In this document: positions 5,993-38,296 of the stretch, one piece after another
How the letters are laid out: every line of letters begins with the position of its first letter
Numbering within the stretch: position 1 is the stretch's first letter
Source of the DNA: an uncultured Chloroherpeton sp.
Lineage (GTDB): Bacteria > Bacteroidota > Ignavibacteria > Kapaibacteriales > UBA2268
Reading direction: 5' to 3'
Length of the DNA: 64,000 nt
NCBI GenBank assembly: GCA_964500435.1
Contig: CAZCNL010000003.1
Coordinates: forward strand, 40,664 to 104,663
Program-made: the position numbers and the translations under genes
Notes under the pieces: model-generated
Seen by the model: the letters and a program-made list of their open reading frames with translations, nothing else
Told to the model about the DNA's origin: nothing
The model's database searches: none

Positions 5993-8023
5993 ATGTATCG
6001 TATTTTCCTAATATTAATAGCAGTTACTATGATTACATATAGTAACTTCGCAGCTCCAGTAATTCAAATAACTTCACCTCAAGCAGGTGAAAGTTATAAA
6101 ATTGGCCGAACAGTAACAATCAAATGGAACACTCAAGGAACTAACACATTGAAAGAGACTTTCAAGTTTTATGCCAGTACAGAAGGACCTAACGGACCTT
6201 GGACATTACTAACTCTTCCAAAAGGGGTGACAGAACTAAAAGATGTTAGCTCCGATACAACAAAACCCCTCGGTTCAGTAAACACAGTATTCCCAAGAAA
6301 AGCAACAAAGAATTTATATTTAAAAATGGCTTGGAAAAATGACGAGAATGTTAACAACGTTGTAGGACCAATTGAAATTACAGCACCTTTACCAACAAAA
6401 GTAGATTCTGTTCTTACAGGAGATATTACAAATACGATAACTTTATCATCAAATAAAATCTACGGATTAAAAGGAATAGTCTTTGTTCAAAGGGGTGGAG
6501 TTTTGAGAATAGAGCCTGGTACAATTATAATGGGTGAAATTGGTAATACAAGTGCAATTTGTGTCAACCGTGGCGGTATAATTTATGCAAATGGAACACC
6601 ACAAAAACCAATAGTTATGACAAGTGCTGCACCTCCAGGACAAAGAGATAGAGGCGATTGGGGCGGATTGTTATTAATGGGAAAAGCAAAAACGAACTTA
6701 GTCGAAGCTCCTATTGAAGGTGGAATTGCAGACGGACAAGACGTTAAAAAGAATGGCTGGTATGGTGGCGACGATGACGCTGATAGTAGTGGAATTTTGC
6801 GATTTGTTCGTGTTGAATTCGCTGGTATTGCTGAATCTCCAGATAATGAATTAAATGGTCTAACATTTGGAGCCGTTGGAAATCGAACTGTAATTGAAAA
6901 TGTACAAGTGTCATACTCAGGAGATGATTCATTTGAATGGTTTGGTGGTTCTGTTAATTGCAAGAGAATTATTGCATACAATGGAATAGATGATGATTTT
7001 GATACAGACAATGGTTTCAGAGGTAAAGTGCAATTTGGACTTTCCAAGCGTTTTGCAGATATTGCAGACCAATCAAATAGTGAAGCTTACGAAAGTGATA
7101 ATGATTCAAAATCAAGTGAAAGGCAGCCTTTCACTGGTGCAATTTTTTCGAATATGACCAACATTGGACCAATTAGCGATTTAACAATGGAACCTGGAAC
7201 AGGTCCGAATAAGTATAATCCCAAATTTTTAACTGCTGTCCAAATACGTAGAAATTCACGAATGAATTTATATAATTCATTAATCGTTGGTTGGCCTCGT
7301 GGTGTTGAATTAACAAATCAAAATACAGTTCGTGCTGCTAATAATGATTCTATCCATGTACGTTATTGCAATTTCTATGGAATAAAAGATGAAACAAAGT
7401 TCTTTTATTTCCCAAGTGGTACAAATCCTGATGGAAAAGTTACAAACGATTGGTTAAGTTCAGTTGAAAAAGGAAATATCTTTTTAAATGCAAGTGGTGA
7501 TTTAGATGATGTAGCTCATCTAAAAAATGCTTTTAGTGATGAATTATCATTATTCGACCCAAGTCCAACAGCTGATGCTCCATACTTAAATAATGCTAAT
7601 TATGATAGTGACCCAATTGTAGATATTGCAAATCCATATTTTGATAAAGTTCCATATCGTGGTGCATTTGCATTTGGAGAAAGATGGGATTTGCCTTGGG
7701 CTGAATATGACCCAGTGAATGTGGAATATAAAGCCACAAGTGTAGAAGATAATAATTCAGAACCTGCATTTAATTTATCATTATATCCACAACCAGCAAC
7801 TGATCTGCTTGCTGTTAATTATTATTTACTAAATAATACGAATGTAACTTTAAAAATTATTGATACTTATGGGAATGTTCTGACAACATTCGAACAAGGT
7901 CAACAACCAATTGGGTACTATAATTTAAATATAAATTTATCAACTTTATCAAACGGACTATACTTTGTTCAAATGATAACTAACAATGGCTTTACATCAC
8001 AAAAATTTGTTGTTGTCAAGTAA
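5993..8023 (+). CDS. Secreted cell-surface protein with C-terminal T9SS (Por) type-A sorting domain
   Basis: N-terminal signal peptide. The C-terminal ~80 aa (LYPQPATDLLAVNYYLLNNTNVTLKIIDTYGNVLTT...GLYFVQMITNNGFTSQKFVVVK) match the T9SS CTD pattern. Lies 25 nt downstream of the TonB receptor on the same strand. Confidence 0.7.
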   Translation: MYRIFLILIAVTMITYSNFAAPVIQITSPQAGESYKIGRTVTIKWNTQGTNTLKETFKFYASTEGPNGPWTLLTLPKGVTELKDVSSDTTKPLGSVNTVFPRKATKNLYLKMAWKNDENVNNVVGPIEITAPLPTKVDSVLTGDITNTITLSSNKIYGLKGIVFVQRGGVLRIEPGTIIMGEIGNTSAICVNRGGIIYANGTPQKPIVMTSAAPPGQRDRGDWGGLLLMGKAKTNLVEAPIEGGIADGQDVKKNGWYGGDDDADSSGILRFVRVEFAGIAESPDNELNGLTFGAVGNRTVIENVQVSYSGDDSFEWFGGSVNCKRIIAYNGIDDDFDTDNGFRGKVQFGLSKRFADIADQSNSEAYESDNDSKSSERQPFTGAIFSNMTNIGPISDLTMEPGTGPNKYNPKFLTAVQIRRNSRMNLYNSLIVGWPRGVELTNQNTVRAANNDSIHVRYCNFYGIKDETKFFYFPSGTNPDGKVTNDWLSSVEKGNIFLNASGDLDDVAHLKNAFSDELSLFDPSPTADAPYLNNANYDSDPIVDIANPYFDKVPYRGAFAFGERWDLPWAEYDPVNVEYKATSVEDNNSEPAFNLSLYPQPATDLLAVNYYLLNNTNVTLKIIDTYGNVLTTFEQGQQPIGYYNLNINLSTLSNGLYFVQMITNNGFTSQKFVVVK

Positions 8024-8053
8024 AATTAATTAATCATACCTAATAATCAACAA

Positions 8054-8095
8054 AGCAGGGTATTCTAATTGGGTGCCCTGCTGCGTTATTTTATT
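8054..8095 (+). terminator. Putative intrinsic terminator after the 5993..8023 gene
   Basis: GC-rich stem AGCAGGG/CCCTGCT with a long loop, followed by GCGTTATTTTATT. Confidence 0.45.
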
Positions 8096-8153
8096 ATACT
8101 CTTGTTATAATAAAATTATCTATTGAATTGAAATTATAAAGAAGTAACAAATG

Positions 8154-8861
8154 TTATTTTTCTTTATGAAGCTTTTTAATTTTTAGAATTTCGATTAGCA
8201 TATTAATTGAGTCAAAGAATGGATTTACTTTACTTTGCTCGTCATTATACCACTCAACAGGGACTTCTTTTATTTTTAAATGAAGTTTATTCGCCAAATA
8301 TAGCATCTCGACATCGAAGCTAAAGCCGTTCACAAGTGCTTTAGAAAAAATTGTTTGTGCAGCGTTTTTAGTTAAAAGTTTAAACCCACATTGAGTATCT
8401 CTTATACCTTTTATAACGAGAAACTGGACAATTTTATTAAATGTTTTGCCCATAATTTCCCGGTAAAATGGTTGATGGATTTTGATTTGTGAGTAATCAA
8501 TAGCACGACTTCCGATTACAACGTCGAAGCCTTCTTCAATAAAAGGAAGCAATTTTTCGATTTCATAAATTGGAGTGGATGAATCAGCATCAGTAAATAA
8601 GACTATATCCCCACTTGCGGCAAGCATACCAGTTCTAACTGCTGCACCTTTTCCCATATTTTGTCCCAATTTGATAACGTTTACTGTTGGGGCAAAATTT
8701 TGGGAAATAGATGCAGTGTTATCTTTAGAACCATCATCAACAATGATTATCTCGTAAGCATTATTTTTACTGTTAAAATATGCAATAATTTTTTTCAATG
8801 TATCGGGCAATCGCTTTTCTTCGTTATATGCTGGAATTACAATAGAAATCATACTAATCAA
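8154..8861 (-). CDS. GT2 glycosyltransferase, polyprenyl-phosphate sugar transferase type (GtrB/ArnC/Dpm1-like)
   Basis: N-terminal IVIPAYNEE...VDDGSKDNT...TDAD motifs of the GT-A DxD fold. Its ~235 aa length is typical of polyisoprenyl-phosphate glycosyltransferases. Starts 7 nt after the upstream DUF2723 gene. Confidence 0.75.
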   Translation of the reverse strand: MISMISIVIPAYNEEKRLPDTLKKIIAYFNSKNNAYEIIIVDDGSKDNTASISQNFAPTVNVIKLGQNMGKGAAVRTGMLAASGDIVLFTDADSSTPIYEIEKLLPFIEEGFDVVIGSRAIDYSQIKIHQPFYREIMGKTFNKIVQFLVIKGIRDTQCGFKLLTKNAAQTIFSKALVNGFSFDVEMLYLANKLHLKIKEVPVEWYNDEQSKVNPFFDSINMLIEILKIKKLHKEK

Positions 8862-8868
8862 TTAATGC

Positions 8869-11800
8869 TTATTTTGTTGAATCATTATTTGTAATATTAT
8901 TCACGAATGCTTCAAGTTGCCGTGCTAACATAATGGAATCTGGATTATTTGTGTTTTGCAATCTTTCAATTGTTTTATTTATAAAATCAATTCGACCTTT
9001 TTTACCACCTGCAGCTTCTGCTTGTTCCATTTGAATCATCAACACTTTCTTTTTGATATTATTCATATTTTCAACAAGGTATTGTTGATAACCAGCATAT
9101 TGTGGGTCGGATTTAATATCTTGAAGCATTTGTGAAGCCATAGCATATTCCATATTCAATTTTTCGATGGTTAATTTATAATCTTTTATTAAATATGCCA
9201 TATCGGCCATAGTTGTGTAAGGACCTCGATAGCGTCCCAAAAGCTCATAAAATTGCATTTCCTTCATTATTTGGTTATTTGCTAAAGCAGTTTCAACTAA
9301 GTTGATAGACATTTCAGCAAATTTCTTTGCCATTTGTTTATTATTCATTTTATCATATAAATCAGCTACTTGGGCAGTCATTTCCCAATCCATAGGGAAT
9401 AAGTCAACAGAAATAAGCTTATTCATTAATTCCAATGCTTTATTTGCTTTTACTGTATCTTTTTGTATTGTTAAAACATTTTGAGCATAATCAAGGAAAA
9501 TTAATCTGTAACCCAAAATTGAGCGTCTGTGGACTTCATCATAGTAAACTGATGGGTCATTTAAATTTCTGAATTTAAATCCGTAATGTGGTTCTTTATG
9601 GAAATTATTTGAGTTGTCATAATTAAATAAACATTTTTCGGTAATGTTAATATCTAAGTCAGATGCTTTGCCACGTGGTTGTTTTACTGGTGTTATCCTT
9701 AAAGCAAGACCGCCACGGACTAAGAAATCTTCTAATCCAATATATACATCGGAACCAACTGTTGCAGAGAAGTAAATTGGTCTTTTGAACATATTTGTTT
9801 TCAAAATGTCAAAGATTAATTTATCTTGAACACGGAATAAATAAATCATTTTACCTTCATTTTCACGGTATTGCTCGCCTTTATATGTAAAGGTCATTTT
9901 GCTATTTTCAATTAATTGTGGGTCGTTAGTATATTGCTTCATAATTTCTTTAGGAATATTCAAAGTAACTTCACGAGCTTCTCCGAACTCATAACTATAG
10001 GCTCTTGGGTCAGTTTCATCATATACTTTCAAACTATCATCAGGGATTGAAATTGGCACTTTCTTGGCGCCCCAAGGTTCTCGATTTTTAAGTTGGTCAA
10101 TGTACCATAAAGTATTTCCTAATGATAAATTAACAATTCTAACATCACGACGTACACCTTCTACATCTTGCAAAAACCAGACGGGAAATGTGTCGTTATC
10201 TCCATTTGTAAACAAGATGGCATCTTTTTCTACACTTTGCAAGATATTATATGAGTAATCAAATGGGAAATAATTTCCAGCACGACTGTGTATTTTCCAA
10301 CCTTGAGCTCCCATATTTATTGGTACAAGTAACATTGAAATGGCAACTATTGTGGCTGGAACAAAATTTTTATTATAGTTTTTCTTTAATGAATCAATTA
10401 TTGAATAAACACCGAGTCCAATCCACATCGTCCATACCATAAATGCACCAGCATAGAAATAATCACGTTCACGAGGTTGAGGTTCTTGTTGATTTTGTTG
10501 GATAGCAGCAAGGACACCCATCATAAGAAACATAACTAAATAAATAAAAGCCATTTTGGGGTCTTTGTTGAAATGGAAAAACAAACCAAGAAGACCAAAA
10601 AGTAATGGAATTGCAAAAAATCTTACAGGGAATAAATTTTTGTAACCATTATTAATATTCAAAACATCAGCTTCTCGGGTATCGAACCAAGATGCGCCAG
10701 CATCTTGTATGTCAGAAGAACGACCAACAAAGTTCCAAAAGAAATAACGCAAAAACATATGGTCAATTTGGTATTTCCATAGATAATTCAGTTCTCCACT
10801 TGTATTTACGTTAGTGAAATCATTGGCTAAATATCCTGTTCCATCTGACTTATATACTTCTTTTTTAGTAGGAGGATTCCAAGGACCATAAACATAATTA
10901 CCCTTATCGTCTTGCTTATTATAATTGCGGACATAGTAACTATCTGTTTGGTAACGACGTGGCCACATTGGTGCTTCGCCATATTGCTCCCGACCGAGAT
11001 AGGAAACTAATCTTTCAATGTTTTTGGGTTCGTTTTCGTTCATCGGAGGATTGGAATTTGATCTAATTAAAATCTGTGTGTAAGTTGTATAGCCTATTAT
11101 CATTAATAAAAATGATGAGGCGACCAAACCAATTATATATCTTGATTTCTTTTGACTATACCACAGATAATATCCTGCAAGAATTACTAATATTATTGGG
11201 ATCAATCTTAAAAACAAACTGTCTGTAATTATGTATTCATGTGCATCATTTTTTGTGGGAGAATGCCCTGCAAGTAAAGCTGGAATCCATTTGACTATAC
11301 CAGGATAAATTATTGAAAAAATGATTATGGAAATAATACTAACAACTATAAATGATACTGGTTTGATTTGATATTTTCTAAAGTAAACTAAATAAACAAG
11401 TGAAAATATGGTTAATATTGATAGTAAATGGACGCCCGTTGATAATCCAATAAGATAAGCTATTAATAATAAATACTTTTCGTGTCCTGGATTATCGGCT
11501 TCTTCGTTCCATCTCATCATCAAATAAATGATTAAAGCAACAAATAAATTTGAAGAGGCATAAACTTCGGATTCAACTCCATTAAACCAAAATGTATCAC
11601 TAAAATTAAAAGCCAAAGCCGCTACTAACGATGAACCATAAACAGATATTGCTTCATAGGTTGTTTCGACTTTTTTCCCCATTAAATTTTCGATAATTCT
11701 ATAAGTAATCAAATAAACAAGCAAGATAATGAATGCATCGGCGAAAACCGAGGTCATATTAATTTTCCAACCTGGGTCGCCAAATGGTAAAAATAAATGG

Positions 11801-11988
11801 AATAATTTCGCAACCATCAAAAATAATGGAGCGCCAGGTGGGTGAGGAACTTGTTGCCAAACAGTTGCACCAGAAAATTCACCGCAATCCCAAAATGGGA
11901 CGCTTGGTTGCACAGTTAATGCATAAGTTATAAAGGATACAACGAATGCAAGTATTGCAAAAATTCGATTGATTAATTTTTTATCCAT
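8869..11988 (-). CDS. Large polytopic membrane protein of the DUF2723 family (putative GT-C-like glycosyltransferase)
   Basis: 1039 aa. N-terminal FWDCGEF...HPPGAPLF motif and ~11 hydrophobic helices, typical of DUF2723. A large C-terminal soluble region follows. Co-oriented and nearly abutting the GT2 gene. Confidence 0.6.
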   Translation of the reverse strand: MDKKLINRIFAILAFVVSFITYALTVQPSVPFWDCGEFSGATVWQQVPHPPGAPLFLMVAKLFHLFLPFGDPGWKINMTSVFADAFIILLVYLITYRIIENLMGKKVETTYEAISVYGSSLVAALAFNFSDTFWFNGVESEVYASSNLFVALIIYLMMRWNEEADNPGHEKYLLLIAYLIGLSTGVHLLSILTIFSLVYLVYFRKYQIKPVSFIVVSIISIIIFSIIYPGIVKWIPALLAGHSPTKNDAHEYIITDSLFLRLIPIILVILAGYYLWYSQKKSRYIIGLVASSFLLMIIGYTTYTQILIRSNSNPPMNENEPKNIERLVSYLGREQYGEAPMWPRRYQTDSYYVRNYNKQDDKGNYVYGPWNPPTKKEVYKSDGTGYLANDFTNVNTSGELNYLWKYQIDHMFLRYFFWNFVGRSSDIQDAGASWFDTREADVLNINNGYKNLFPVRFFAIPLLFGLLGLFFHFNKDPKMAFIYLVMFLMMGVLAAIQQNQQEPQPRERDYFYAGAFMVWTMWIGLGVYSIIDSLKKNYNKNFVPATIVAISMLLVPINMGAQGWKIHSRAGNYFPFDYSYNILQSVEKDAILFTNGDNDTFPVWFLQDVEGVRRDVRIVNLSLGNTLWYIDQLKNREPWGAKKVPISIPDDSLKVYDETDPRAYSYEFGEAREVTLNIPKEIMKQYTNDPQLIENSKMTFTYKGEQYRENEGKMIYLFRVQDKLIFDILKTNMFKRPIYFSATVGSDVYIGLEDFLVRGGLALRITPVKQPRGKASDLDINITEKCLFNYDNSNNFHKEPHYGFKFRNLNDPSVYYDEVHRRSILGYRLIFLDYAQNVLTIQKDTVKANKALELMNKLISVDLFPMDWEMTAQVADLYDKMNNKQMAKKFAEMSINLVETALANNQIMKEMQFYELLGRYRGPYTTMADMAYLIKDYKLTIEKLNMEYAMASQMLQDIKSDPQYAGYQQYLVENMNNIKKKVLMIQMEQAEAAGGKKGRIDFINKTIERLQNTNNPDSIMLARQLEAFVNNITNNDSTK

Positions 11989-12127
11989 TACTAACCATTA
12001 ATTTTGTTTTTTATATTTTTTAAGATTACTAAATTACGATTATATAATTAAATAATTATGCAATTTCTTACTATTTATATCGATTTAACAAATTTTTCTT
12101 AATTTTTTTTGTTGCAAATTTTAAAAT

Positions 12128-13753
12128 ATGCTAAATCATCTTTACACATTAGAAAAAATAACAATAGAATTTCAAGAAATTATAGGTTTTAAATTAATTG
12201 AAGTTATTTCTCAGGAAAAAGATTCTGCTGTTTTGACTTTTTTTGATAATGAAAATTTTCGTTATATTAAATATTACGGTATTCCTCATTTCGAAGCAAT
12301 TTATATGACGGAAAAGTTTAGTAAAAAACGTTCAAATTTTTCGGTACTTTTTCCTCAAATCACTAATGAATTTCTTCAAGATGTTTCTTTAATTTCTGAT
12401 ACACGAGTAATTTGCTTAACATTTATGAAGTATAAATTATATTTTTTGTTATTTGGAAATGGACAAAATAATTTAATTTTAACAAATTTTGAAGACGTAG
12501 TAATCGATTCATTAGAAAATTCGAAAGAACTTATTGGTATTCAGTTTAAAATACCACTTTCAAATTTGTTTGATTTAAAGAATCTTCCATCCGATTTAAC
12601 AATTAAAAAAGCTTTATCTTATTCAAATTTACTTTTAAATCAATTTTATAGTGACGACTTTTTCAATTTATTAAAAATTGATTCTAATAAAAAAGTGGCT
12701 GATTTTAGTAGTCAAGAGATTTCAGATATCATTGACAAAGCTAAGGAATACGTTGGTTCAATCAGAAAATCACAAAAATTTTACTTAATTTCTAATTCAA
12801 AAGGTGATAAGTTCTTATCATTAATACCTCTCGAAAGTATTGGAGTAATTGAGTTTGTCTCAGATAAAGCATCAAATTTGGTTTCAAAAGTATTATTTTT
12901 CAGATTTCAGCAAAATAAATATAATGACTTATTCAAAAGAATTAAAAAATTAGCTGAACAAGATTTCAAAAGTATTAAGAAAAAATATGATGCTTATGCT
13001 AATGAAAAAATGAAAGTACAATTAGCTGAAAAATACCGTGAATATGGTGATTTAATTTACTCATCTCCTCAAAATTTGAAAGCAAAAGGTAAAGCAGAAA
13101 TTATCCTGTCTGATTTTCAAGGTACACAAAAGAAAATTGAGCTAAATCCGAAGTTGACCTTAATTGAAAATGCCGAAAAATTCTATGAAAAATCGAAAAA
13201 TTTAATTAAAAGCGTCAATATTATGAGAATGCAAAAACAAAGGATAGAAGAGCAATATCTTTTTGCTGAAAAACGTTTAACAGAACTTAAACAATGCGAA
13301 AGTCTTTCTCAGTTAGAAGAACACATAAAAAAATATTCTAATTTTTATAAGGTTAAAATGGCAAAAGAGGATAAAGAAATTAGCGAAAAGTTTAAAAAAT
13401 TCCAACTTTCGGACGATGCAATATTATATGTAGGAAAAGATGCAAAAAATAACGATGAACTTACTTTTGGGTTTGGAAAAGCAAATGATTATTGGTTCCA
13501 TATTCGTGGTGCAAGTGGTTCACATTGTATTTTAAAATATGCAGCATCAGGTAAGCCACCAAAAGAAATTATAGAAAAAGCGGCTTCAATTGCTGCGTAT
13601 TATTCATCTCAACGAAATGGCAAATATGTTCCTGTAGTTTATACTCAAAAGAAATATGTACGGAAGCCAAAGGGTGCAAATGCTGGTGCAGTCGTCATTT
13701 CAAAAGAAGAAGTTATTATGGTTGAACCTAAGTTATTTGAAACTAATAATTAA
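12128..13753 (+). CDS. NFACT-family protein (RqcH/Rqc2-like ribosome quality control factor; FbpA/DUF814 type)
   Basis: 541 aa with a central coiled-coil-rich region. The C-terminal segment YWFHIRGASGSHCIL...AASIAAYYS is characteristic of the NFACT-R/DUF814 domain. Confidence 0.55.
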   Translation: MLNHLYTLEKITIEFQEIIGFKLIEVISQEKDSAVLTFFDNENFRYIKYYGIPHFEAIYMTEKFSKKRSNFSVLFPQITNEFLQDVSLISDTRVICLTFMKYKLYFLLFGNGQNNLILTNFEDVVIDSLENSKELIGIQFKIPLSNLFDLKNLPSDLTIKKALSYSNLLLNQFYSDDFFNLLKIDSNKKVADFSSQEISDIIDKAKEYVGSIRKSQKFYLISNSKGDKFLSLIPLESIGVIEFVSDKASNLVSKVLFFRFQQNKYNDLFKRIKKLAEQDFKSIKKKYDAYANEKMKVQLAEKYREYGDLIYSSPQNLKAKGKAEIILSDFQGTQKKIELNPKLTLIENAEKFYEKSKNLIKSVNIMRMQKQRIEEQYLFAEKRLTELKQCESLSQLEEHIKKYSNFYKVKMAKEDKEISEKFKKFQLSDDAILYVGKDAKNNDELTFGFGKANDYWFHIRGASGSHCILKYAASGKPPKEIIEKAASIAAYYSSQRNGKYVPVVYTQKKYVRKPKGANAGAVVISKEEVIMVEPKLFETNN

Positions 13754-14104: not shown

Positions 14105-17100
14105 TTAGTTTTGGTAAAGCATTTTTTCAATTTTTGGATTAGTAGAACTTAATTTTATAAAATAAATTCCTTGTGAAAGATTCGACAAATCTATTGTTTT
14201 TACGTAAGAACCCTTCGATAAATCAATTGTTAAAACAATTGCACCTAAATAGTTATAAAAGTCTAACTTGTCACCTTCATAAATATTTTTGAAAGAAATA
14301 TCAACTGATTTTTGACCGATTGGTTGAGCAAGTAGTTGAAATGTTGATTCTGGATAAATGATAATATGATTTCCACTTTCCAATGTGCAAATTGGTATTA
14401 TGGTTAATGAACCATCTTTTTTAATGATATTCAAATTTTTTGAAGTAAAAACATCAAATTTATTAATTATTAATGGCGTGTAATTTGGGTCTGAAGCCAA
14501 AACCAAGCCTTTGATTTGCAAAATAGTGTCTGCTATGGATAATAATTTTGAGGACTCTGATGCATTAAATGAAGCGTTGATTACACCGCTTAAGTAATCA
14601 AAATTATGTTTTAAGAATAAATTTGGTGATGATATAGCTTTTAACTCAAGTGGGAAAAATAGATATTTATCAAAATTCAGTCGGAATTGAATTGAATCTG
14701 TTAAAACTTTGGGGAGCTTGGTATCCAAATAAAAAGATAAAGTTAGTGTATCACCAGCTTTTGAATTATAATCTCGAGTACTTATTATTGCAAAATAACT
14801 CTCTTCGGGAGTTTGTGCTATTAAGTTGAAGATAATTGTATCTTTGCATATCGAAGATTCTTCGATTATAAAATTATCGACATAATTACCTTCTTTCTGT
14901 GATAGAAATGAGATAATTATATTTTCAGTTTCATTTGGCGCAACGATTAATGGAAGTTGCGTGTGTATTTCGAAGTTTTGTGGTAAAGATATTCCTTTAA
15001 TAATTCTTGGTGTATTATAAGGATTTTGAACTTGAATAGTATCAAATACTTCATCACCGACCCAAACACTCCCGAAATTCAAAGATTTTTTTGAATAAAC
15101 TAAATGTGGTTCTATTATTTCAGCTTTGAATGTTAATTTGTTTGTATCGCCACAAATATTGCTTATCCAAATTATATAACCAGAATATATTCCCGCTTTA
15201 TCAGCAATTTCAGGGTTGAATTCAACACTTATTGTCTGGGATGAATTTGAATTTAAAGAAAAATTAGAAATTGGTGAAATTGTGAAACAATTAGGGAAAG
15301 ATTGGTCTAAAATCGAAATGCTATCATTTAATTTCCCAATATTTTTTAATTCTCGTGTTTTTATTAAAGAGTTATCACATCGCTCAAATGTTCCGAAATC
15401 TATATAATTTGAATCGAGTTGAAGTACGGATTTAATAAAATTAACATTTAAAGGGAATGATAATATTTGTCCATCAGGGTCTATTGTTTTCAATATTAAA
15501 TCAGAAGAGTAATCTCCTTCAATTTGGGTTTCAAATTTGACGATAATTCCAAGCGAATCTTGGCTTTTTAAATAATATGGAAACGTATTTGGGTAAAGTA
15601 AAGTAAATTCTGGAGCACCTGAGATATCAATAGCGGTTATAGTATCTTGAACTGAACCTAAATTTTTAACCCAAATAGTATCAATTTTAGTGCCATCGCA
15701 TATAATATTTCCAAAGGCAGAATTAGTTCCCCAAACAATAAATCTATCTATACTTGATAAATCCAATGGAATACAGAAATCAGCAGGGCATTGACTTGAT
15801 GTATTGAAACATATTGTACCTTTATAAAAAGCATTTTTAGAAGAATTAATTGTTAAATTTAACTCAATATTTTGATTGATATCCAAGACTTGAGAAAGTT
15901 GAGGATTTAAATCAAATGTGAAATCGCTCGTTGGTGGATTTAAAGTATAATTAACGATAGTAATAATTTCATTTCCTGTATTTTTCAAAATAATTTTTTT
16001 GGTTTTTGGTTCATTGCTTTTTAAAACTTCAGAAATTGAATTCGGTGAAGCATCAATACTCGCTTCAATGCCAAAACCTGTAACAATTATCTGCAAACTA
16101 TTACATTTTCCGGTTGAAAAGAGCAAAGTATCAGAAAACTTACCCATTTTAGTAGGCATAAAGGAAAAAACTACATCCAAAAGTTGTTTAGGTTCTATTG
16201 TTGTATTACTTGGTAATTGGACTGCAAAGGGTAATTGAGTTTGTTTTAATTGAGTAATGTAACCTCGTAAATTGCCAGTGTTTTCTAATTGTAAAAGTGT
16301 GTCTTTTTTTGTATTTATACAAACCTTTCCAAAATCTATTATCGGATTTTTTAATAAAATTTCCTCTGATTGCTTCTTCCCAACTAAAAGAATATTTACA
16401 GGGTTTTTATTTCCTCTGACTGTAGTTTTGTCATTATTATCTAAACGCAGTAGATAGCTGACTGGTGTAAGGGAGTTAGGAGTAAATTGAACGATAATCG
16501 AATCTGACTTCCCGATAGGAATCGACACCGGTTCGCTTTTACCACTAGTCCAACCCAAAATTGAGACTTCAGTTGGGTTAGAAACGATAACTGATTTTGA
16601 AACAATTAATGTTGCATTACCGGTATTTTTTATAGGTATAGTGTCAATAATTTTTTGGTTACAAAAGCTATCGAAATGGATGCTGTCAGGAACTGTGATT
16701 ATTGGTGAAATTCCGTAAGCACGAACAGTTATTACAGTATCTAAATTACAGGGTAATAAATAGAAACGATATTTTTGGGTGACCCAACCAGTATCAGAGA
16801 GCATAAACTTAAATTCCGTAGATGTCCCAGTTTTAAAGACATAAAATGGGGTTTTTGTTTCGAAGCTAATTTGTCCTTTATCGTCAAGTAATTCAGAATA
16901 ATTTTTTACTTGGCTATTGTTATCATCTGCAATCCATTTAAGAAGTGAACTTGTAACGACTCCACATTGAATGCTATCAAGAACAAGTAAATTAGTTTCA
17001 GGGCGAGCAGTTGATTTATTTCCCTGTCCCAGCAAGTCGATATCTTTTGTGAATGTAGTTTTACCATCTTTGGAGGAAAGAACAATTGATAATTTTGCGG

Positions 17101-18304
17101 AATATGGACCATTTCCTGGAGGTGCGAATTTAATTACGATTGCATTTGAGTCACATTGAGAAATTGAAGAAATGCTCGAGGGAGATACAATAGAAAAAGC
17201 ATTATCAAAATTAGCAGAGAGTAAAATGCTCATATCAGCATCATAAAATGAATGGTTTGAAACAATTAATGAATCTTTTCGAGAGTCTGGATAACATATT
17301 TCACCAAAGTCAATTTTATCTTTCGAAGCAAGGAATTTAGTTTGTTTCAAGTGGTAAACCCCTTGTCCGACCACCCAGCCGTCATCTGGCGTGAGAAATG
17401 TGATATCGTCGAGATCGACATTTTCAATTCCACAATTTCGTAGTGTCCAAGTTGCCCCGGCATCGGAAGTGTAATAAAGAGACCTATTATAACCGCAAGC
17501 CCAACCTGTTGTGGGGCTTGTTAAATATGCACCAAACATAGGGTAACCGGAATTGAAGCTGCGCCATGTGTTCCCGTTATCTGTTGAAAATCTCATCCCG
17601 CCTGAATTACCACCTCCAAAACACGTTGTTCCCGCAGTAGGAAGCAAGATAGAATTTCCGGATATAGTAATTTCTTCTTGCCATACTTGTGTTCCCGTAG
17701 ATTTGCTAATTGACCAAGAAGAACCATAATCAGTAGTAATCCATAAATAACCGCTACTTACAGCAATTCCAGTTCCATTTTGATAAAGTATCACATCTGT
17801 TAGACCCGTTCCAACAACATTTGTTTTGAATAAAGTCCAAGAAGCACCGCCATTCGTAGTTTTATAGAAACGCTGCATATTATCGCAACCACCACCAATG
17901 ATAACCCCAAGATTTTCATTTAAAAAATAACTTCCCCAAAAGCCATAAATTGCGGAATCTTTAGGAGTAACATTGACAAAAGAGGCGCCTCCATCCGTGC
18001 TTTTCCAAATACCTTCGACACCAGACACATATCCAACTAATTCGTTTACAAAAAAAACATTTTCCATATGGTCTGCAGGTTGAGGGAGTGTAGAGCCTTG
18101 CCATGTTGCTCCATAATTTGTAGAGCGAATCACAAAACCACCAAAACCGCAAGCCCAAATATAATTTGTATTTGATGGAAGTATATATAAATCTAAATAA
18201 TAGCCATTATTGTATGGTGTAGGAATGTTAGTTACTTTTTCCCAATATTGAGAAAATGTAGTTTGAGTTAGTAGAAATAATAAAATGTAAAATAATATTT
18301 TCAT
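14105..18304 (-). CDS. Giant secreted surface protein with N-terminal BNR/Ycf48-like beta-propeller repeats and C-terminal T9SS sorting domain
   Basis: 1399 aa. Signal peptide with Q at +1. Repeated G(A/S)(T/S)W motifs (YGATWQG, TDGGASF, TNGGASWT, TDYGSSWS, TDNGNTWRS, SDAGATWT). A long Ig-like beta-rich middle. C-terminal KGSYVKTIDLSNLSQGIYFIKL... T9SS CTD. Confidence 0.65.
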   Translation of the reverse strand: MKILFYILLFLLTQTTFSQYWEKVTNIPTPYNNGYYLDLYILPSNTNYIWACGFGGFVIRSTNYGATWQGSTLPQPADHMENVFFVNELVGYVSGVEGIWKSTDGGASFVNVTPKDSAIYGFWGSYFLNENLGVIIGGGCDNMQRFYKTTNGGASWTLFKTNVVGTGLTDVILYQNGTGIAVSSGYLWITTDYGSSWSISKSTGTQVWQEEITISGNSILLPTAGTTCFGGGNSGGMRFSTDNGNTWRSFNSGYPMFGAYLTSPTTGWACGYNRSLYYTSDAGATWTLRNCGIENVDLDDITFLTPDDGWVVGQGVYHLKQTKFLASKDKIDFGEICYPDSRKDSLIVSNHSFYDADMSILLSANFDNAFSIVSPSSISSISQCDSNAIVIKFAPPGNGPYSAKLSIVLSSKDGKTTFTKDIDLLGQGNKSTARPETNLLVLDSIQCGVVTSSLLKWIADDNNSQVKNYSELLDDKGQISFETKTPFYVFKTGTSTEFKFMLSDTGWVTQKYRFYLLPCNLDTVITVRAYGISPIITVPDSIHFDSFCNQKIIDTIPIKNTGNATLIVSKSVIVSNPTEVSILGWTSGKSEPVSIPIGKSDSIIVQFTPNSLTPVSYLLRLDNNDKTTVRGNKNPVNILLVGKKQSEEILLKNPIIDFGKVCINTKKDTLLQLENTGNLRGYITQLKQTQLPFAVQLPSNTTIEPKQLLDVVFSFMPTKMGKFSDTLLFSTGKCNSLQIIVTGFGIEASIDASPNSISEVLKSNEPKTKKIILKNTGNEIITIVNYTLNPPTSDFTFDLNPQLSQVLDINQNIELNLTINSSKNAFYKGTICFNTSSQCPADFCIPLDLSSIDRFIVWGTNSAFGNIICDGTKIDTIWVKNLGSVQDTITAIDISGAPEFTLLYPNTFPYYLKSQDSLGIIVKFETQIEGDYSSDLILKTIDPDGQILSFPLNVNFIKSVLQLDSNYIDFGTFERCDNSLIKTRELKNIGKLNDSISILDQSFPNCFTISPISNFSLNSNSSQTISVEFNPEIADKAGIYSGYIIWISNICGDTNKLTFKAEIIEPHLVYSKKSLNFGSVWVGDEVFDTIQVQNPYNTPRIIKGISLPQNFEIHTQLPLIVAPNETENIIISFLSQKEGNYVDNFIIEESSICKDTIIFNLIAQTPEESYFAIISTRDYNSKAGDTLTLSFYLDTKLPKVLTDSIQFRLNFDKYLFFPLELKAISSPNLFLKHNFDYLSGVINASFNASESSKLLSIADTILQIKGLVLASDPNYTPLIINKFDVFTSKNLNIIKKDGSLTIIPICTLESGNHIIIYPESTFQLLAQPIGQKSVDISFKNIYEGDKLDFYNYLGAIVLTIDLSKGSYVKTIDLSNLSQGIYFIKLSSTNPKIEKMLYQN

Positions 18305-27015: not shown

Positions 27016-28056
27016 CTATTGATTTTTAGCGTCATCAATCGTTTTCATGATTTTATTTATTTTTTTATAAAGCTCAGGCAAGGAATTTAAAACAGCTTCA
27101 ATTTTGAAAGCAAGTGACTTTTCACGAACAGGTGAACCATAGTAGATGCCGCTTTGGGGAATAGATTTTGGAACACCGGATTGAGCATAAATGATTACAT
27201 CATCGGCAATGTTAAGATGACCTGCGACGCCTACTTGTCCTCCAAGTTTATTACGTTTGCCAATTTTAGCACTGCCCGAAATTCCTGTTTGAGCAGCCAT
27301 TCCAGTATTTTCACCAACTTCTACGTTATGACCAATTTGGATTAAATTATCTAATTTGACACCATCGTTAATATATGTGGAACCAACAAAAGCTCGGTCT
27401 ATTGTTGTGTTTGCACCAATTTCGACATTATTTCCAATTACTACATTACCAATTTGAGGAATTTTTGTGTAGGAACCATCAGGATTATCGATATATCCAA
27501 AGCCATCGGACCCGATTACTGCACCAGAATGAATGATGCAATTATTTCCAATTACACAATCTTTGTAGATAGTTACATTAGAGTGAAGAATAGTATTTTT
27601 GCCGATTTGTACGTTCTTATGGATTGAACAATTTGATTTAATAATTACATTGTCTTCGACGGTAACACCATTTGCAATAAAACAATTCGGACCAATGTAA
27701 GAATTTTGAGAAATTTTTGCACCATTTTCAATTACCGCAGTTGGATGAATTCCATATGAATACTCTTCTTTTTCCGCAAAATGAAAAACTAATTTTAAGA
27801 ATGCCACATAAGGATTTTCTACAAGAATAAAGACTTGGTTTGCCTTTGGTTGATAACTTGATTTTTCGGGAATTAAAACACAAGTTGCTTCAGTGGATTG
27901 AAGATATTTTTCATATTTTTCATTTGCTAAAAAAGTAACATCGCCTTGCTTGGAATGTTCTATACGATTTAATCTTTTAAGTTTTGCATTTGTTGTTCCA
28001 ACAATATTATTAGATTCTAAAAAATCTGACAATTCCTTAATATCCAATTCAAACAT
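27016..28056 (-). CDS. lpxD: UDP-3-O-acylglucosamine N-acyltransferase
   Basis: N-terminal LpxD domain followed by extensive left-handed beta-helix hexapeptide repeats. Its position downstream of skp is conserved synteny. Confidence 0.85.
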   Translation of the reverse strand: MFELDIKELSDFLESNNIVGTTNAKLKRLNRIEHSKQGDVTFLANEKYEKYLQSTEATCVLIPEKSSYQPKANQVFILVENPYVAFLKLVFHFAEKEEYSYGIHPTAVIENGAKISQNSYIGPNCFIANGVTVEDNVIIKSNCSIHKNVQIGKNTILHSNVTIYKDCVIGNNCIIHSGAVIGSDGFGYIDNPDGSYTKIPQIGNVVIGNNVEIGANTTIDRAFVGSTYINDGVKLDNLIQIGHNVEVGENTGMAAQTGISGSAKIGKRNKLGGQVGVAGHLNIADDVIIYAQSGVPKSIPQSGIYYGSPVREKSLAFKIEAVLNSLPELYKKINKIMKTIDDAKNQ

Positions 28057-28059
28057 ATA

Positions 28060-28782
28060 TTACCTTTTAATAGGGTTAAGCTCATTATTTGGTGGTGTTG
28101 ATTTCAAAGAATCTGGGTTATTTGGATTCTGTTGTTCTGGGTTCTCGAACTGCCTATCGTCGGGTGTGTCAGTTTTTGTTCGAGATACTCTTTTGGGCTT
28201 AACAGATTGTTTTTGTTGATTAGCTGGGTCTTTTTGAATTTTTTCTTGTAATTCTTTTTCTAATTGCTCAACATCGACACCCAATTCTTTCAGCACTTCT
28301 ATTGTTAAATCATATTTGAAATTGACATAAGCAAGAGGTTGAACACTTTGGTCAAATACAATATCGAAATTTCGTGAATTTGCTACCTTTTGTACGGCTG
28401 CAGAAATTTTTTGGTCAATTGGTGTCATAATTTGTTTAACAACTTGGTCATATTCACCATTTGGTGAAAATTTCGAACGTGCATAGCCTTCGCTTTGTTC
28501 TTTTAATTCACGTAATTCTTTTTCTTTTTGAGATTTTTCTTCGTCTGTCCAAATTAGCCGATTTTTATTAATTTCAAATTCAAGATTATCAATATTTTTT
28601 TGAATTACAGACAACTCTCTTTTCCATTCTTCAACGAATGAACGAATTCGTTGTTCAGCTTGTTGAGCATCAGGTAATTTTGTGCGAATCATTTGCGAGT
28701 TGATAAAAGCAACTCTTTGTGCAAATGTTGTAAAAGGGACAATTCCTATACTTAATAGTACTAATAAAAGTAGTTTTTTCAT
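28060..28782 (-). CDS. skp: OmpH/Skp-family periplasmic chaperone (first copy)
   Basis: Signal peptide with Q at +1 and a coiled-coil-rich ~200 aa body with a Pro/Asn-rich tail. Located between bamA and lpxD. Confidence 0.7.
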   Translation of the reverse strand: MKKLLLLVLLSIGIVPFTTFAQRVAFINSQMIRTKLPDAQQAEQRIRSFVEEWKRELSVIQKNIDNLEFEINKNRLIWTDEEKSQKEKELRELKEQSEGYARSKFSPNGEYDQVVKQIMTPIDQKISAAVQKVANSRNFDIVFDQSVQPLAYVNFKYDLTIEVLKELGVDVEQLEKELQEKIQKDPANQQKQSVKPKRVSRTKTDTPDDRQFENPEQQNPNNPDSLKSTPPNNELNPIKR

Positions 28783-28824
28783 AAATTTTAATATAAATTA
28801 ATAAAATCGACTAATTTCTAAAAA

Positions 28825-29382
28825 TCAATTATTACCTCTTTTTATAACATCTAATACTTTATATGTTAAATCAAATTTATCATCAAAATATAAAAGTGCA
28901 TTACTTGTTTTGTCTAAGACTAATGAAATAGATTCTTCTTTTGCAACTTTTTGGATGGCAGTTCTAACTTTCTCTCTAATTGGGTCTAAAAATTTTTCTC
29001 TTGTTTGATTGAGTTCACCATTTTGTCCGAATTTTTGGTCTTGGTATTGGATTAATTGGTTTTGCATCATTTGTAAGGATTCTTCTTCTTTTGATTGTTG
29101 GTCAGCGGACATTAAAGATTTTTGTTTTTGATATTTTTGAATTTTGTCATCAAATTCTTTTTTCATTGCAATAAGTGAGTCCTGCCATTTTGTTCCTATT
29201 TCTTTTAATTTTTTATCAGCTGCAACAGCTTCAGGCATTTCTTTTAAAATAATTTCAATATCGACAATTCCAAATTTCAAAGTTGGAGTGTTAGAAGATT
29301 TACCTTGTGCTAAAGCAGCATTGAAAGAAAAGCTGAAAGCAAGTACAAAAATTGTTATTAATGAGATGATTGTGTATTTCAT
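28825..29382 (-). CDS. skp: OmpH/Skp-family periplasmic chaperone (second copy)
   Basis: Signal peptide with Q at +1 and a coiled-coil body. Tandem with the first skp-like gene. Confidence 0.7.
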   Translation of the reverse strand: MKYTIISLITIFVLAFSFSFNAALAQGKSSNTPTLKFGIVDIEIILKEMPEAVAADKKLKEIGTKWQDSLIAMKKEFDDKIQKYQKQKSLMSADQQSKEEESLQMMQNQLIQYQDQKFGQNGELNQTREKFLDPIREKVRTAIQKVAKEESISLVLDKTSNALLYFDDKFDLTYKVLDVIKRGNN

Positions 29383-29439
29383 AGTTTTTCCTTATTTATT
29401 AATAATAATTCTTTTTTTTCTTAATTTTTTATTATATTC

Positions 29440-31794
29440 TTATTGCTGACCAAGATGGAAAAGGAATTGCCAACCTGAAGGTGCTTTCGAGGTATTAGTT
29501 GGGTCAAATCCGTAACCATAACTAAATCCAATCATACCAATTGGATTAATCAATAAATGTACACCAAGTCCAGCAGAGCGTTTCAAATCAAATGGATCTG
29601 TTTTTGCAAACGATTGCCAAACATTTCCTGCTTCGCCAAAAGCATAAACATAAATTGGCATTGGGTCTAAAGAAATTGCAAATCGCAGTTCTGCCGTATA
29701 TTTTGCCAATACGTAACTTCCATTATCACTACCAATTGATCTATCTTGATAACCACGTAAAGGAGTTACACCCCATCCACTCAAACCATTTCCGCCTAAA
29801 TAATATCGTTCGATTGGTGGGATTGTAGAAAGTGATTTAAAACTTGTTAAATAGCCCCATTTCGAACTCAACATAAATACTAATCTATCTTGCCCTTCGA
29901 TGGATAAAATAGGATTGAAAGAATCATAATTAAGTTCGGTTTTAAGATAATCTGTTGTTCCAATTCCTAAAGAACCTAATGCAAAATCGTTGCTTAATGA
30001 AAATCTTGAACCTACGGAAGGGAAAAATTGATTGTTAATACTAATTCTGGAATATTTTTGACTTAAAGTGATTTCAGTGCCAGGAACAAATAATGAAGAA
30101 GAGCCTTGACCAACATCATTGTACATCCATCGGAAACTCCAATCTCCACGCCAGTAATCATCAGGCCATTTAAATCTGCGACCCAAATTTACTGTAATAC
30201 CAGTTCTCCGCATACTGAAATAATAATTGTAGCGTGTGTCAAATAAATTGAAACCAATAGTTGTTGGCTCATCATTTAACCAAGGTTCTGTGAATCCTAA
30301 TGAAAATGTTTGGTATTGTGAAAATTGACCAAATTCCCAGTTAAATGAAAATATTTGACCAGCACCACCTTTAAGTGGTTCGGATAATGAAAAGTTATTA
30401 AATGAAAAGCCTATTGAGCCGGTTAAGCCAAATGTACCCGCAAAACCAATTGAGGCATTAAATGTATCAGTTGACCTTTCTTCGACATTGTAAATTATAT
30501 CGACGCTGGTATTATCAATTGCCGACGGTTGAACATCCGGTTTTAATTTTTCGGGGTTAAAGTAGTTCATTACACCTAATGCACGAATACTTCGAATTAT
30601 AGCAGAACGGTCGAAATAATCACCTGGACGTGTGTATAATTCTCTTCTAATTACTTTATCTTTTGTTTTTGTATTTCCAACTATGTCTACTTTGCCTATT
30701 TTATACCTTGTGCCTTCAAAAATCATAATTGTTAAATCTAATGAATCATCTGCAACTTTTTTCTCATTAGCAATTAAGCGGGCTTGTAAATAACCATTAT
30801 CTAAATATAAAGAAGCAGCATCAGTTTGGTCTTGATTTGCTTCAAGGTTTTGCTTTAATTTTCCATAATTGTATACATCACCTGGTTTGATATCAATTCT
30901 GCGTAGCAAAACTTCGTTAGAATACACACTATTACCGTCAAAATTGATTTTCCTAATAAAATATTGATTGCCTTCATTGACATTTATTGTAATGTCAACT
31001 TTACCCTCATTTTGGTCGTAAATAATCGTATCTTTAATTATTTCGGCATCAATAAAACCATGATTTTTGTAATAATCAATTAGCAATTTCTTATCATCTT
31101 GATATTTTTTATCGTCAAATTTACCAGATTTCCAAAATTGCCACCATTTTTTGATTTTAGTTTCTTCGAAAGAGCTTATTAAATCACTTGCATCGACTTT
31201 TTTATTTCCGATTATAGTGATTGAGCGTGTTTTGAAATGAGTGCCTTCATCAATAAAAAAGTGCAAATCGACGTAGTTTTTTAATTCAGTATACCGAATA
31301 TCCGGAGAAATTTTAGCAAAGAGTAATCCTTCATCGCTATATTTTTTTCTAAGAGCATTTTTAATTAATAGAGTATCATAATTAGAAATAATGTCGCCTT
31401 TAGTTTTATTGACTTCTTTTAATAAGTCCTTTGTGCTTATTGCATCATTTCCTTCGAAGAAAATTTCGTTTAATCTTGGGAATTCTTCAACTTTAATTAA
31501 CAGAAAAATGCCTGCATCTGTGATTTTGTCGATTAAAATTTCAATTTTATGGAATTGTTTTCTTTTCCATAGATTCAAAATGGCATTTTGAATTTTTGTT
31601 TCATTTGTTTGAGCAATCACATCTCCAACACGAAGTCCAGAGAGAGAAATAATTGTTTCAGCTGAAACAAAATTGTTGCCTTCAACACTTATACCAGCAA
31701 TAATAATAGGTTTAGCTTGCTCGGTTGGTAATTGAGCATAAGAAAAAAATGAATAAAAAATTAATAAAAAAACTAAAAATAATTTAACTTTCAT
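29440..31794 (-). CDS. bamA: Outer membrane protein assembly factor BamA
   Basis: POTRA repeats followed by an Omp85 beta-barrel. The listed ORF begins at 31875, but the likely start is the internal Met MKVKLFLVFLLIFYSFFSYA (signal peptide, Q at +1). That start overlaps the uppS stop by 11 nt. Confidence 0.85.
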   Translation of the reverse strand: MKVKLFLVFLLIFYSFFSYAQLPTEQAKPIIIAGISVEGNNFVSAETIISLSGLRVGDVIAQTNETKIQNAILNLWKRKQFHKIEILIDKITDAGIFLLIKVEEFPRLNEIFFEGNDAISTKDLLKEVNKTKGDIISNYDTLLIKNALRKKYSDEGLLFAKISPDIRYTELKNYVDLHFFIDEGTHFKTRSITIIGNKKVDASDLISSFEETKIKKWWQFWKSGKFDDKKYQDDKKLLIDYYKNHGFIDAEIIKDTIIYDQNEGKVDITINVNEGNQYFIRKINFDGNSVYSNEVLLRRIDIKPGDVYNYGKLKQNLEANQDQTDAASLYLDNGYLQARLIANEKKVADDSLDLTIMIFEGTRYKIGKVDIVGNTKTKDKVIRRELYTRPGDYFDRSAIIRSIRALGVMNYFNPEKLKPDVQPSAIDNTSVDIIYNVEERSTDTFNASIGFAGTFGLTGSIGFSFNNFSLSEPLKGGAGQIFSFNWEFGQFSQYQTFSLGFTEPWLNDEPTTIGFNLFDTRYNYYFSMRRTGITVNLGRRFKWPDDYWRGDWSFRWMYNDVGQGSSSLFVPGTEITLSQKYSRISINNQFFPSVGSRFSLSNDFALGSLGIGTTDYLKTELNYDSFNPILSIEGQDRLVFMLSSKWGYLTSFKSLSTIPPIERYYLGGNGLSGWGVTPLRGYQDRSIGSDNGSYVLAKYTAELRFAISLDPMPIYVYAFGEAGNVWQSFAKTDPFDLKRSAGLGVHLLINPIGMIGFSYGYGFDPTNTSKAPSGWQFLFHLGQQ

Positions 31795-38024: not shown

Positions 38025-38028
38025 AATT

Positions 38029-38292
38029 ATGACAGAGACAATGGTAATTAATTTAGTAAAGGAAGCATTTTATTATACTTTAATTATTGCTGGACCAATT
38101 TTATTGATTTCTCTTATTGTTGGTTTGGTGATTTCTATTTTTCAAGCAGCAACTTCAATTTCTGAACAAACATTGACATTTGTGCCGAAATTAGTAGCTG
38201 TGTTCCTTATTATTTTAATTATTCTGCCTTTTATTATAACTCAATTAAAAGACTTTACAATACGAATTTTTACAATGATTCAAAATATGTGA
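38029..38292 (+). CDS. fliQ: Flagellar biosynthetic protein FliQ
   Basis: 87 aa, two TM helices, in the conserved position after fliP. Confidence 0.85.
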   Translation: MTETMVINLVKEAFYYTLIIAGPILLISLIVGLVISIFQAATSISEQTLTFVPKLVAVFLIILIILPFIITQLKDFTIRIFTMIQNM

Positions 38293-38296
38293 AATT

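Follow-up and report, generated by a model that had tools for sequence, protein, structure and literature searches.

The question raised by positions 8154-11988 of the stretch of DNA analysed here, 64,000 nt with a GC content of about 30% from an uncultured Chloroherpeton sp. (hereafter the window), is what two adjacent genes on its minus strand might do together. The larger gene (8869-11988, minus strand) runs from an ATG start to a stop codon at 8869-8871 and encodes a membrane protein of 1039 residues, and the smaller gene (8154-8861, minus strand) encodes a glycosyltransferase of family 2 (GT2). A preliminary description of this DNA had paired them as a donor synthase and a transferase, and our analysis supports the pairing: the two genes are linked in other genomes as well, and the structural model of the large protein is compatible with a glycosyltransferase of the GT-C fold. 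It is highly probable that the pair performs a GT-C glycosylation dependent on a polyprenyl-phosphate-linked sugar, whatever the acceptor may be, and the narrower reading, in which the acceptor is a protein, is moderately favoured.

The large protein and its relatedness to TMEM260

The N-terminal signature previously reported for the 1039-residue open reading frame (ORF) is present, with FWDCGEF at residues 32-38 and VPHPPGAPLF at residues 47-56, and the closest database relatives come from metagenome-assembled genomes (MAGs) of Candidatus Kapaibacteriota (P0005, 99% identity). Residues 34-207 matched the Pfam family PF11028, the former DUF2723, with E 1.6e-57 and a score of 194.6 bits, the gathering score being 24.2 bits, and the match spans positions 1-176 of the 179 in the profile. 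The family had been described as uncharacterised, which no longer applies: Pfam now names it 'Protein O-mannosyl-transferase TMEM260-like', and the human member was characterised in 2023 as the enzyme that O-mannosylates the IPT domains of plexins, cMET and RON (PMC10214176). Human TMEM260 was thereby recognised as a third type of protein O-mannosyltransferase; its loss leads to a severe congenital heart and kidney syndrome, and a structure has been presented in a 2026 preprint. TMEM260 has the PDB entries 9RQL, 9RQM and 9RQN.

A second Pfam family, PF28495 (TMEM260_2), is assigned to the database entry P0001, whose sequence agrees with that of the window protein at 100% identity, and to all 120 homologs listed; this assignment is a precomputed annotation of the database and was absent from the local Pfam scan of the window protein. 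When the PDB was searched by sequence, human TMEM260 (9rql) was the only match, with E 1.8e-19 for the single sequence and E 4e-23 for a profile of 53 sequences, and the match falls into two colinear stretches, in which residues 12-219 pair with human residues 30-222 and residues 473-636 with human residues 315-480. Five of the eight features that define the TMEM260 family were found in the large protein, and it is a member of that family. The family is extensive, with 13,287 clusters at 50% identity for E<=1e-3 and 1,214 for E<=1e-30, and was found in Ignavibacteria, Chlorobiota, Kryptonia, Bacteroidia and Marinimicrobia. In the literature searched, the sole statement found on DUF2723 was that TMEM260 has 'distant homologs in bacteria'.

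In the AlphaFold2 (AF2) model residues 1-570 (10279-11988, minus strand) form a GT-C transmembrane (TM) domain with about 13 predicted TM helices, going by the model and a hydropathy scan, where 11 or so had been counted earlier. Next comes the 'palm', a Rossmann-like alpha/beta domain in the periplasm that contains an inserted beta-sheet (residues 571-810; 9559-10278, minus strand); its limits are taken from the AF2 secondary structure, and HMMER paired its residues 572-636 with human residues 416-480, where the Rossmann-like domain of TMEM260 begins. The C-terminal domain (residues 811-1039; 8872-9558, minus strand) is modeled as all-helical, with helices at residues 818-1033 that resemble tetratricopeptide repeats (TPR), and is presumed to be the region of acceptor recognition. 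The transmembrane core showed the GT-C fold when tested for it, and the GT-C-like layout that had been suggested thus holds. The closest structural neighbours were Pmt4, Pmt2, PglB and STT3B, and the arrangement of wrist, palm and fingers known from TMEM260 recurs in the model in an enlarged form. Because of helix parity and short K/R-rich loops the N-terminus is predicted to be cytoplasmic, which would place the conserved motifs and the C-terminal domains all in the periplasm. Model confidence was low (pLDDT, the predicted local distance difference test, <50) near residues 46-52 and 334-338.

Human TMEM260 shares PF11028 and PF28495 with the window protein, and also the succession of a GT-C core, a luminal or periplasmic alpha/beta domain and a helical-repeat domain. 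On the other hand, the human protein is shorter (707 residues in its native form, 729 in the solved chain) and has 11 TM helices, and the identity between the two is low and confined to the two blocks. The window protein also carries some 110 additional, conserved residues behind the donor-loading loop (approximately residues 340-450) and the beta-sheet insertion in the palm. Its helical C-terminus is much longer than the human one, is poorly conserved, and shows no asparagine ladder that could be recognised.

Mutagenesis of human TMEM260 has singled out six important residues. D52 and H67 belong to the sugar-recognition motif, R264 and Y267 to the donor-loading loop and R355 to transmembrane helix 10, and D441, the proposed general base, lies in the Rossmann-like domain; the D52A and D441A variants are inactive, and mutation of H67, which contacts the donor sugar, abolishes activity. 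Counterparts of D52, H67 and D441 can be pointed out in the window protein, as can probable ones of R264, Y267 and R355 by motif, and their conservation was measured in an alignment with 132 divergent representatives (mean identity 29%). In the HMMER alignment to 9rql, D34 of the FWDCGEF motif (11875-11895, minus strand) corresponds to human D52 and falls in the first periplasmic loop, where the preliminary description had proposed to look for the GT-C catalytic aspartate, and H49 (codon 11842-11844, minus strand) corresponds to human H67; the spacing of 15 residues between D34 and H49 is that between D52 and H67. D34 is conserved in 98%, E37 in 100% and H49 in 99% of the representatives. HMMER likewise aligned D597, in the motif G596-D597-N-D599 (10192-10203, minus strand), with the human general base D441 ('ftnGDndtf' against 'LLRGDLPGN', that is, NGDNDT against RGDLPG), and here conservation is 100% for D597 and 98% for D599.

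The motif P505-R-E-R-D-Y510 (10459-10476, minus strand) is found in a periplasmic loop within the second HMMER stretch; its E507-R508 is probably the counterpart of human E354-R355, and R506 and R508 are conserved in 100% and 98% of the representatives. The donor-loading loop was left unaligned by both HMMER and hhalign. A probable equivalent of human R264-E-E-Y267 is R333-E-Q-Y336 (10981-10992, minus strand), with ...SYLG-R333-EQ-Y336-GEA in the window protein and ...THFL-R264-EE-Y267-GTF in the human loop, the latter sequence being taken from a 99%-identical fragment (P0395). The best local alignment paired LREEYG with GREQYG and E354-R355 with E507-R508, at a score matched by 273 of 500 shuffles. 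We regard R333 and Y336 as probably equivalent to R264 and Y267 because the motif is invariant in both families (R333 97%, Y336 96% among the representatives), is colinear, and is found in a low-pLDDT loop following a helix. The search for homologs of the human N-terminal segment returned fragments of at most 333 residues, so that the comparison was made without a full-length eukaryotic profile, and hhalign of the human-type fragments against the bacterial alignment recovered the N-terminal block only. Since the counterparts of the catalytic residues are conserved, it is very probable that the large protein is enzymatically active and draws its sugar from a polyprenyl-monophosphate donor. By analogy with human TMEM260 the donor would be expected to carry a hexose and the mechanism to be inverting.

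The GT2 enzyme and its linkage to the large gene

The smaller protein matched the GT2 family of Pfam (PF00535, E 4.8e-35). Its four top NCBIfam models were ArnC, PgfS, AglJ and PpgS, with a haloarchaeal Dol-P-hexose (dolichyl-phosphate hexose) transferase also among the matches, and its best sequence matches in the PDB were the dolichyl-phosphate mannose synthase DPMS of Pyrococcus (5mlz, E 1.8e-20), ArnC and GtrB. With the AF2 model (pLDDT 84.5) as query, the top 25 Foldseek matches were exclusively ArnC, DPMS and GtrB (TM-score 0.74-0.79, identity 22-28%, E 5e-18 to 4e-12), and the soluble GpgS/MpgS enzymes that came next, at about 1e-11, were about six orders of magnitude weaker. D91-A-D93 (8583-8591, minus strand), the DXD metal/nucleotide-sugar motif of the GT-A fold, is invariant in 39 orthologs. 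The enzyme had been assigned to the GT2 type that loads a sugar onto polyprenyl phosphate, and the top matches in both sequence and structure are all enzymes of this type; it is a probable polyprenyl-phosphate hexose synthase. It is no ortholog of ArnC, PpgS, AglJ or PgfS, since its scores remain far below the NCBIfam equivalog cutoffs (89 bits against 529 for ArnC, 74 against 370 for PpgS).

The term GtrB-like, used earlier for this protein, fits the sequence and fold of its catalytic domain and does not extend to the C-terminal TM hairpin. No TM segment was found in the GT2 (the maximum Kyte-Doolittle mean over 19 residues was 1.1); the chain stops at the point at which GtrB and ArnC continue into their TM helices (235 residues against 307-355 in the Foldseek targets), and its C-terminus is an amphipathic helix. 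Lacking a TM segment, the enzyme is not GtrB/ArnC-like in architecture and resembles the TM-less DPM1/PpgS class, being soluble or peripheral. Several close homologs are labelled 'dolichyl-phosphate beta-glucosyltransferase' (ALG5-like) by JGI and NCBI.

The preliminary description had proposed that the co-occurrence of the two genes be followed across genomes. A scan of species-representative genomes yielded 80 loci with relatives of the large protein (37-82% identity), of which 68 had enough downstream sequence to be informative; orthologs of the GT2 were recognised strongly, at E 1e-65 to 1e-104. Of the 68 loci, 22 have the GT2 gene directly downstream of the large gene and three directly upstream, in either case on the same strand, and in one it was found 3.4 kb away on the opposite strand. 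The 25 adjacent same-strand loci thus include both gene orders, and their large proteins are 42-82% identical to that of the window. As a control for synteny, the NFACT neighbour was kept in two of the 80 loci and every other neighbour from the window in none or one. Starting from the GT2, six orthologs on long contigs were inspected; four of them (L081, L087, L088 and L090) come immediately after a TMEM260-like gene, with flanking genes that differ among the four. The linkage is well above background, despite the decayed synteny, and it is not obligatory.

Downstream adjacency was observed in 21 of 46 Kapaibacteria-like bins and in one of 22 Ignavibacteria-type loci, two more of which have the GT2 upstream. 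In the Ignavibacteria-type loci (L057-L080 and similar, a subgroup of about 40% identity) the TMEM260-like gene is preceded by a conserved block made up of lepA (17 loci), the signal peptidase I gene lepB (20) and a hemW-like radical SAM gene (22), and a BshA-like GT4 gene is found downstream of it in 15 loci (e.g. L068:1943-4885 and L070:39-1856). The proximity of lepB may fit a modification of secreted proteins, or it may be mere housekeeping synteny. A Marinimicrobia locus (L083:6001-10831, from a 'Pelagibacteraceae TMED237' MAG) has a 1274-residue TMEM260-like gene that overlaps by 32 nt with a gene for a 345-residue GT2. It was rejected as an independent instance of the pair; this GT2, at 33% identity over 92 residues, is of another subtype, and the NCBIfam models that it matches best are MftF/EpsD-like and not polyprenyl-phosphate synthases.

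A third gene recurs with the module, an orthogroup of DHA1-type exporters of the major facilitator superfamily (MFS; MdtG-like with E 1.6e-58, and NorA-like). It follows the GT2 gene in L036, L088 (5702-6940), L082 and L089, and adjoins the large gene in the GT2-less loci L021, L028, L033, L040 and L053. That the large gene, the GT2 gene and the MFS gene are each found beside each other suggests one module, in which we hypothesise that the DHA1 protein serves as the flippase in place of GtrA. Its possible role as a sugar importer was rejected, the type being that of a DHA1 exporter. A likeness of the MFS protein to the glycolipid flippase LtaA is no more than an analogy, LtaA not being among the PDB matches.

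No ortholog of this exporter is present in the 64-kb window, and no GtrA-type small flippase was found in the operon or the window, with no such Pfam match among the window ORFs scanned. The gaps that flank the operon, 130 and 139 nt, are too small for a GtrA-type gene, and apart from an ORF of 87 residues between fliP and fliR the window has no small ORF with several TM segments. Across the 80 loci no recurrent small membrane ORF was observed. The window ORFs scanned contain no other GT-C enzyme.

Proposed reaction, acceptor and rival explanations

In the proposed reaction the GT2, at the cytoplasmic face of the inner membrane, would move a hexose, glucose or mannose, from a nucleotide sugar to undecaprenyl (polyprenyl) phosphate. 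The lipid-linked sugar would then be flipped to the periplasmic face, a step for which no gene of the window accounts. There the TMEM260-family GT-C enzyme would bind it as its donor through the TM 'wrist' (D34, H49, R333, Y336 and R508), and with D597 as general base a single sugar would be transferred, with inversion, to a hydroxyl group of an acceptor that the periplasmic domains would hold. Judging from TMEM260, PMT and TMTC, this acceptor is most likely an envelope protein or a secreted protein in an extended state (unfolded and Sec-translocated), modified at Ser or Thr.

Several known systems work along similar lines. In the actinobacterial Ppm1 and Pmt, and in DPM1 and PMT/POMT, a polyprenyl-phosphate-mannose synthase likewise feeds a GT-C O-mannosyltransferase. 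In contrast to the Pmt systems, the GT-C protein of the window belongs to PF11028 and not to PMT/GT39, and has alpha/beta and helical domains instead of MIR domains; in contrast to DPM1, the homologs of the GT2 are labelled ALG5-like by their source pipelines. The GtrA/GtrB/GtrC, ArnC/ArnE-F/ArnT and CsbB/GtcA/YfhO systems share the placement of a polyprenyl-phosphate GT2 gene beside a GT-C gene, and the catalytic domain of the GT2 superimposes on GtrB and ArnC with TM-scores of 0.74-0.77. Unlike these three-component systems, the window has no GtrA-type flippase, the GT2 has no C-terminal TM hairpin, the GT-C protein is of another family and far larger, and the third recurrent gene encodes a DHA1 MFS protein and not a GtrA homolog. 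ALG5 shares the catalytic domain of the polyprenyl-phosphate GT2 enzymes, and its name has been given to close homologs of the GT2; this comparison rests on names, no ALG5 structure or NCBIfam model being among the matches. The GT2 of the window is about 100 residues shorter than ALG5 and has no TM anchor, and its lipid would be undecaprenyl and not dolichyl phosphate. Taken as a whole, the pair is a plausible bacterial surface-glycosylation module of a general kind already known, of which this member is itself uncharacterised.

A protein acceptor is favoured by the only characterised member of the family, which modifies proteins, by the invariant general-base aspartate, and by the structural neighbours (Pmt4, Pmt2, PglB and STT3B), which are all protein-modifying. 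Other observations weigh against a donor synthase and transferase pair that acts on proteins. Bacterial pairs of GT2 and GT-C enzymes mostly decorate glycans or lipids. The C-terminal domain gave no Pfam TPR match, is 12% conserved and shows no visibly conserved asparagine ladder, and a recognition of protein acceptors of the human type is therefore unproven; an acceptor sequon of the IPT type was found in no window protein in a scan of the ORFs. The ALG5-like labels mean that the sugar loaded by the GT2 could be glucose and need not be mannose, and the donor of the large protein may accordingly differ from that of TMEM260. No flippase gene was found in the 64-kb window, the equivalence of R333/Y336 with R264/Y267 lacks statistical support in the pairwise alignment, where shuffles scored as high, and no biochemical or genetic data on bacterial members were found in the literature searched. 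As for the linkage, it is facultative: the GT2 is absent within 6 kb in 42 of the 68 informative loci, adjacency is nearly absent from the Ignavibacteria-type subgroup, and two GT2 orthologs (L082 and L089) have no large gene nearby. The GT2, being found apart from the large gene, may therefore serve other pathways.

These observations bear on three rival explanations. In the first the enzymology is the same and the acceptor is a periplasmic glycolipid or polysaccharide (lipid A or lipopolysaccharide core, O-antigen, exopolysaccharide or a peptidoglycan-linked polymer), as with ArnT, GtrC, YfhO and Emb/Aft; the prevailing targets of bacterial GT2 and GT-C pairs and the features of the C-terminal domain are in keeping with it, the family relationship and the protein-modifying neighbours speak for a protein, and we consider it possible, with a rather low probability. 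It is improbable that the adjacency is non-functional, with the GT2 serving an unrelated pathway and the TMEM260-like enzyme fed by another synthase. Besides the 42 loci without a nearby GT2, such an adjacency would account for the GT2 orthologs that stand beside the MFS gene and away from the large gene, for the higher identity among the GT2 orthologs (60-66%, against 40-55% for the large protein), as expected of a housekeeping enzyme, and for the different GT2 subtype that adjoins the large gene in Marinimicrobia. However, the pair persists in 25 of the 68 loci while all other synteny has decayed, it occurs in both gene orders and with varied flanks, the MFS gene joins either gene separately in a pattern typical of one functional module, and a donor synthase beside a GT-C enzyme matches the biochemical logic of known systems. 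The remaining explanation, that the large protein is a transporter, a scaffold or a pseudoenzyme and not an active glycosyltransferase, has very little to recommend it: the pLDDT falls below 50 around residues 46-52 and 334-338, and on the opposite side stands the conservation of the catalytic residue counterparts described above.

The preferred reading, glycosylation of a protein acceptor by the pair, raises the matter of the type IX secretion system (T9SS), which had been noted as abundant in the window and as a possible source of acceptors. The abundance is borne out, with Por_Secre_tail domains encoded in the ORFs at 5993-8023, 14105-18304 and 52421-53638. A specific link to T9SS cargo was not supported, nor do the findings speak against one. 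Por_Secre_tail genes border the pair here as well as in L081 and L087, but being frequent throughout these genomes they say little by their position. The transferase of the general O-glycosylation in Bacteroidota was still unidentified as of 2022 (PMC8729774), and the literature searched contained no identified O-oligosaccharyltransferase of Bacteroidota, only statements that the enzyme was unknown; no connection of the TMEM260-like family with this system emerged from it.

Relatives of TMEM260 are very numerous in bacteria and are not known to have been studied, and the locus is a compact and genetically tractable version of the pathway that could serve as a simpler model for the human enzyme. 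Its characterisation would show the targets and the sugar of the bacterial TMEM260-like enzymes and, if the acceptors are proteins, a new route of O-glycosylation in lineages related to Bacteroidota. It is a tentative and rather doubtful extension of this that the TMEM260 family of the Fibrobacterota-Chlorobiota-Bacteroidota (FCB) group, as found in Kapaibacteria, Ignavibacteria, Chlorobiota, Bacteroidia and Marinimicrobia, might represent a widespread, unrecognised protein O-hexosylation with an ALG5/DPM1-like undecaprenyl-phosphate-hexose synthase and a DHA1 MFS flippase, a bacterial counterpart and possibly the evolutionary source of the metazoan O-mannosylation by TMEM260.

Transcription unit and other features of the window

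The junction between the two genes reads TAA-gcattaa-TTG ATT AGT ATG on the coding strand. From the TTG the GT2 has 235 residues and the spacer is 7 nt (8862-8868), and from the ATG at 8852 it has 232 residues and the spacer is 16 nt (8853-8868). An identical protein in the database, P0121, has 232 residues, and its gene call begins at the ATG at 8852, which makes the 16-nt spacer the likelier; this ATG is probably the true start, and the gap is still operon-like. The common orientation of the two genes and the GT2 reading frame itself were described correctly before, and the length of 235 residues and the distance of 7 nt hold for the TTG only. No terminator-like site was found between the two genes in a scan of 7900-12300. 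The sole such site in this region is a 12-bp GC-rich hairpin with six G-C pairs (8054-8082), placed between the GT2 gene and a convergent T9SS-cargo gene (5993-8023), which probably terminates transcription from both sides, that of the operon included. Because of the gap of 7-16 nt, the lack of an internal terminator and the hairpin after the GT2 gene, the two genes are presumed to form a two-gene operon. Upstream of the large gene there is a divergent NFACT/RqcH-like gene (12128-13753).

Sigma-70-like promoter sites near the operon were at or below chance, and the Bacteroidota-type -7 motif TAnnTTTG was not found on the minus strand upstream of it. Over the whole window this motif is mildly enriched, with 145 occurrences against 119.8 +/- 10.6 expected, a number reached by only one of 100 shuffles.

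Elsewhere in the window, an envelope cluster on the minus strand (27016-32608) includes uppS (31784-32608), bamA (29440-31875), two skp/ompH genes and lpxD; UppS, the undecaprenyl diphosphate synthase, produces the carrier lipid on which the proposed pathway would draw. Genes of flagellar type III export (37230-40174; fliP, fliR and flhB) are found in the window alongside several T9SS-cargo genes, and the 87-residue ORF with two TM segments between fliP and fliR (38029-38292) is probably fliQ. Three ORFs (1542-2783, 33660-34940 and 41461-43371; 413, 426 and 636 residues) gave no Pfam match at E<=1e-3. The T9SS cargo encoded at 14105-18304 has 1399 residues, with BNR/Sortilin-type beta-propeller repeats and several Ig-like domains of the HYDIN/ASH/Cep192 type, and the same Ig-like domains are found in a protein of 238 residues (51624-52340). 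Close to the proteins with T9SS tails, a glutaminyl cyclase is encoded at 50754-51602 (Glu_cyclase_2, E 2.9e-89). The T9SS cargo of Porphyromonas is N-terminally pyroglutamylated, and by analogy this cyclase may be part of cargo maturation.

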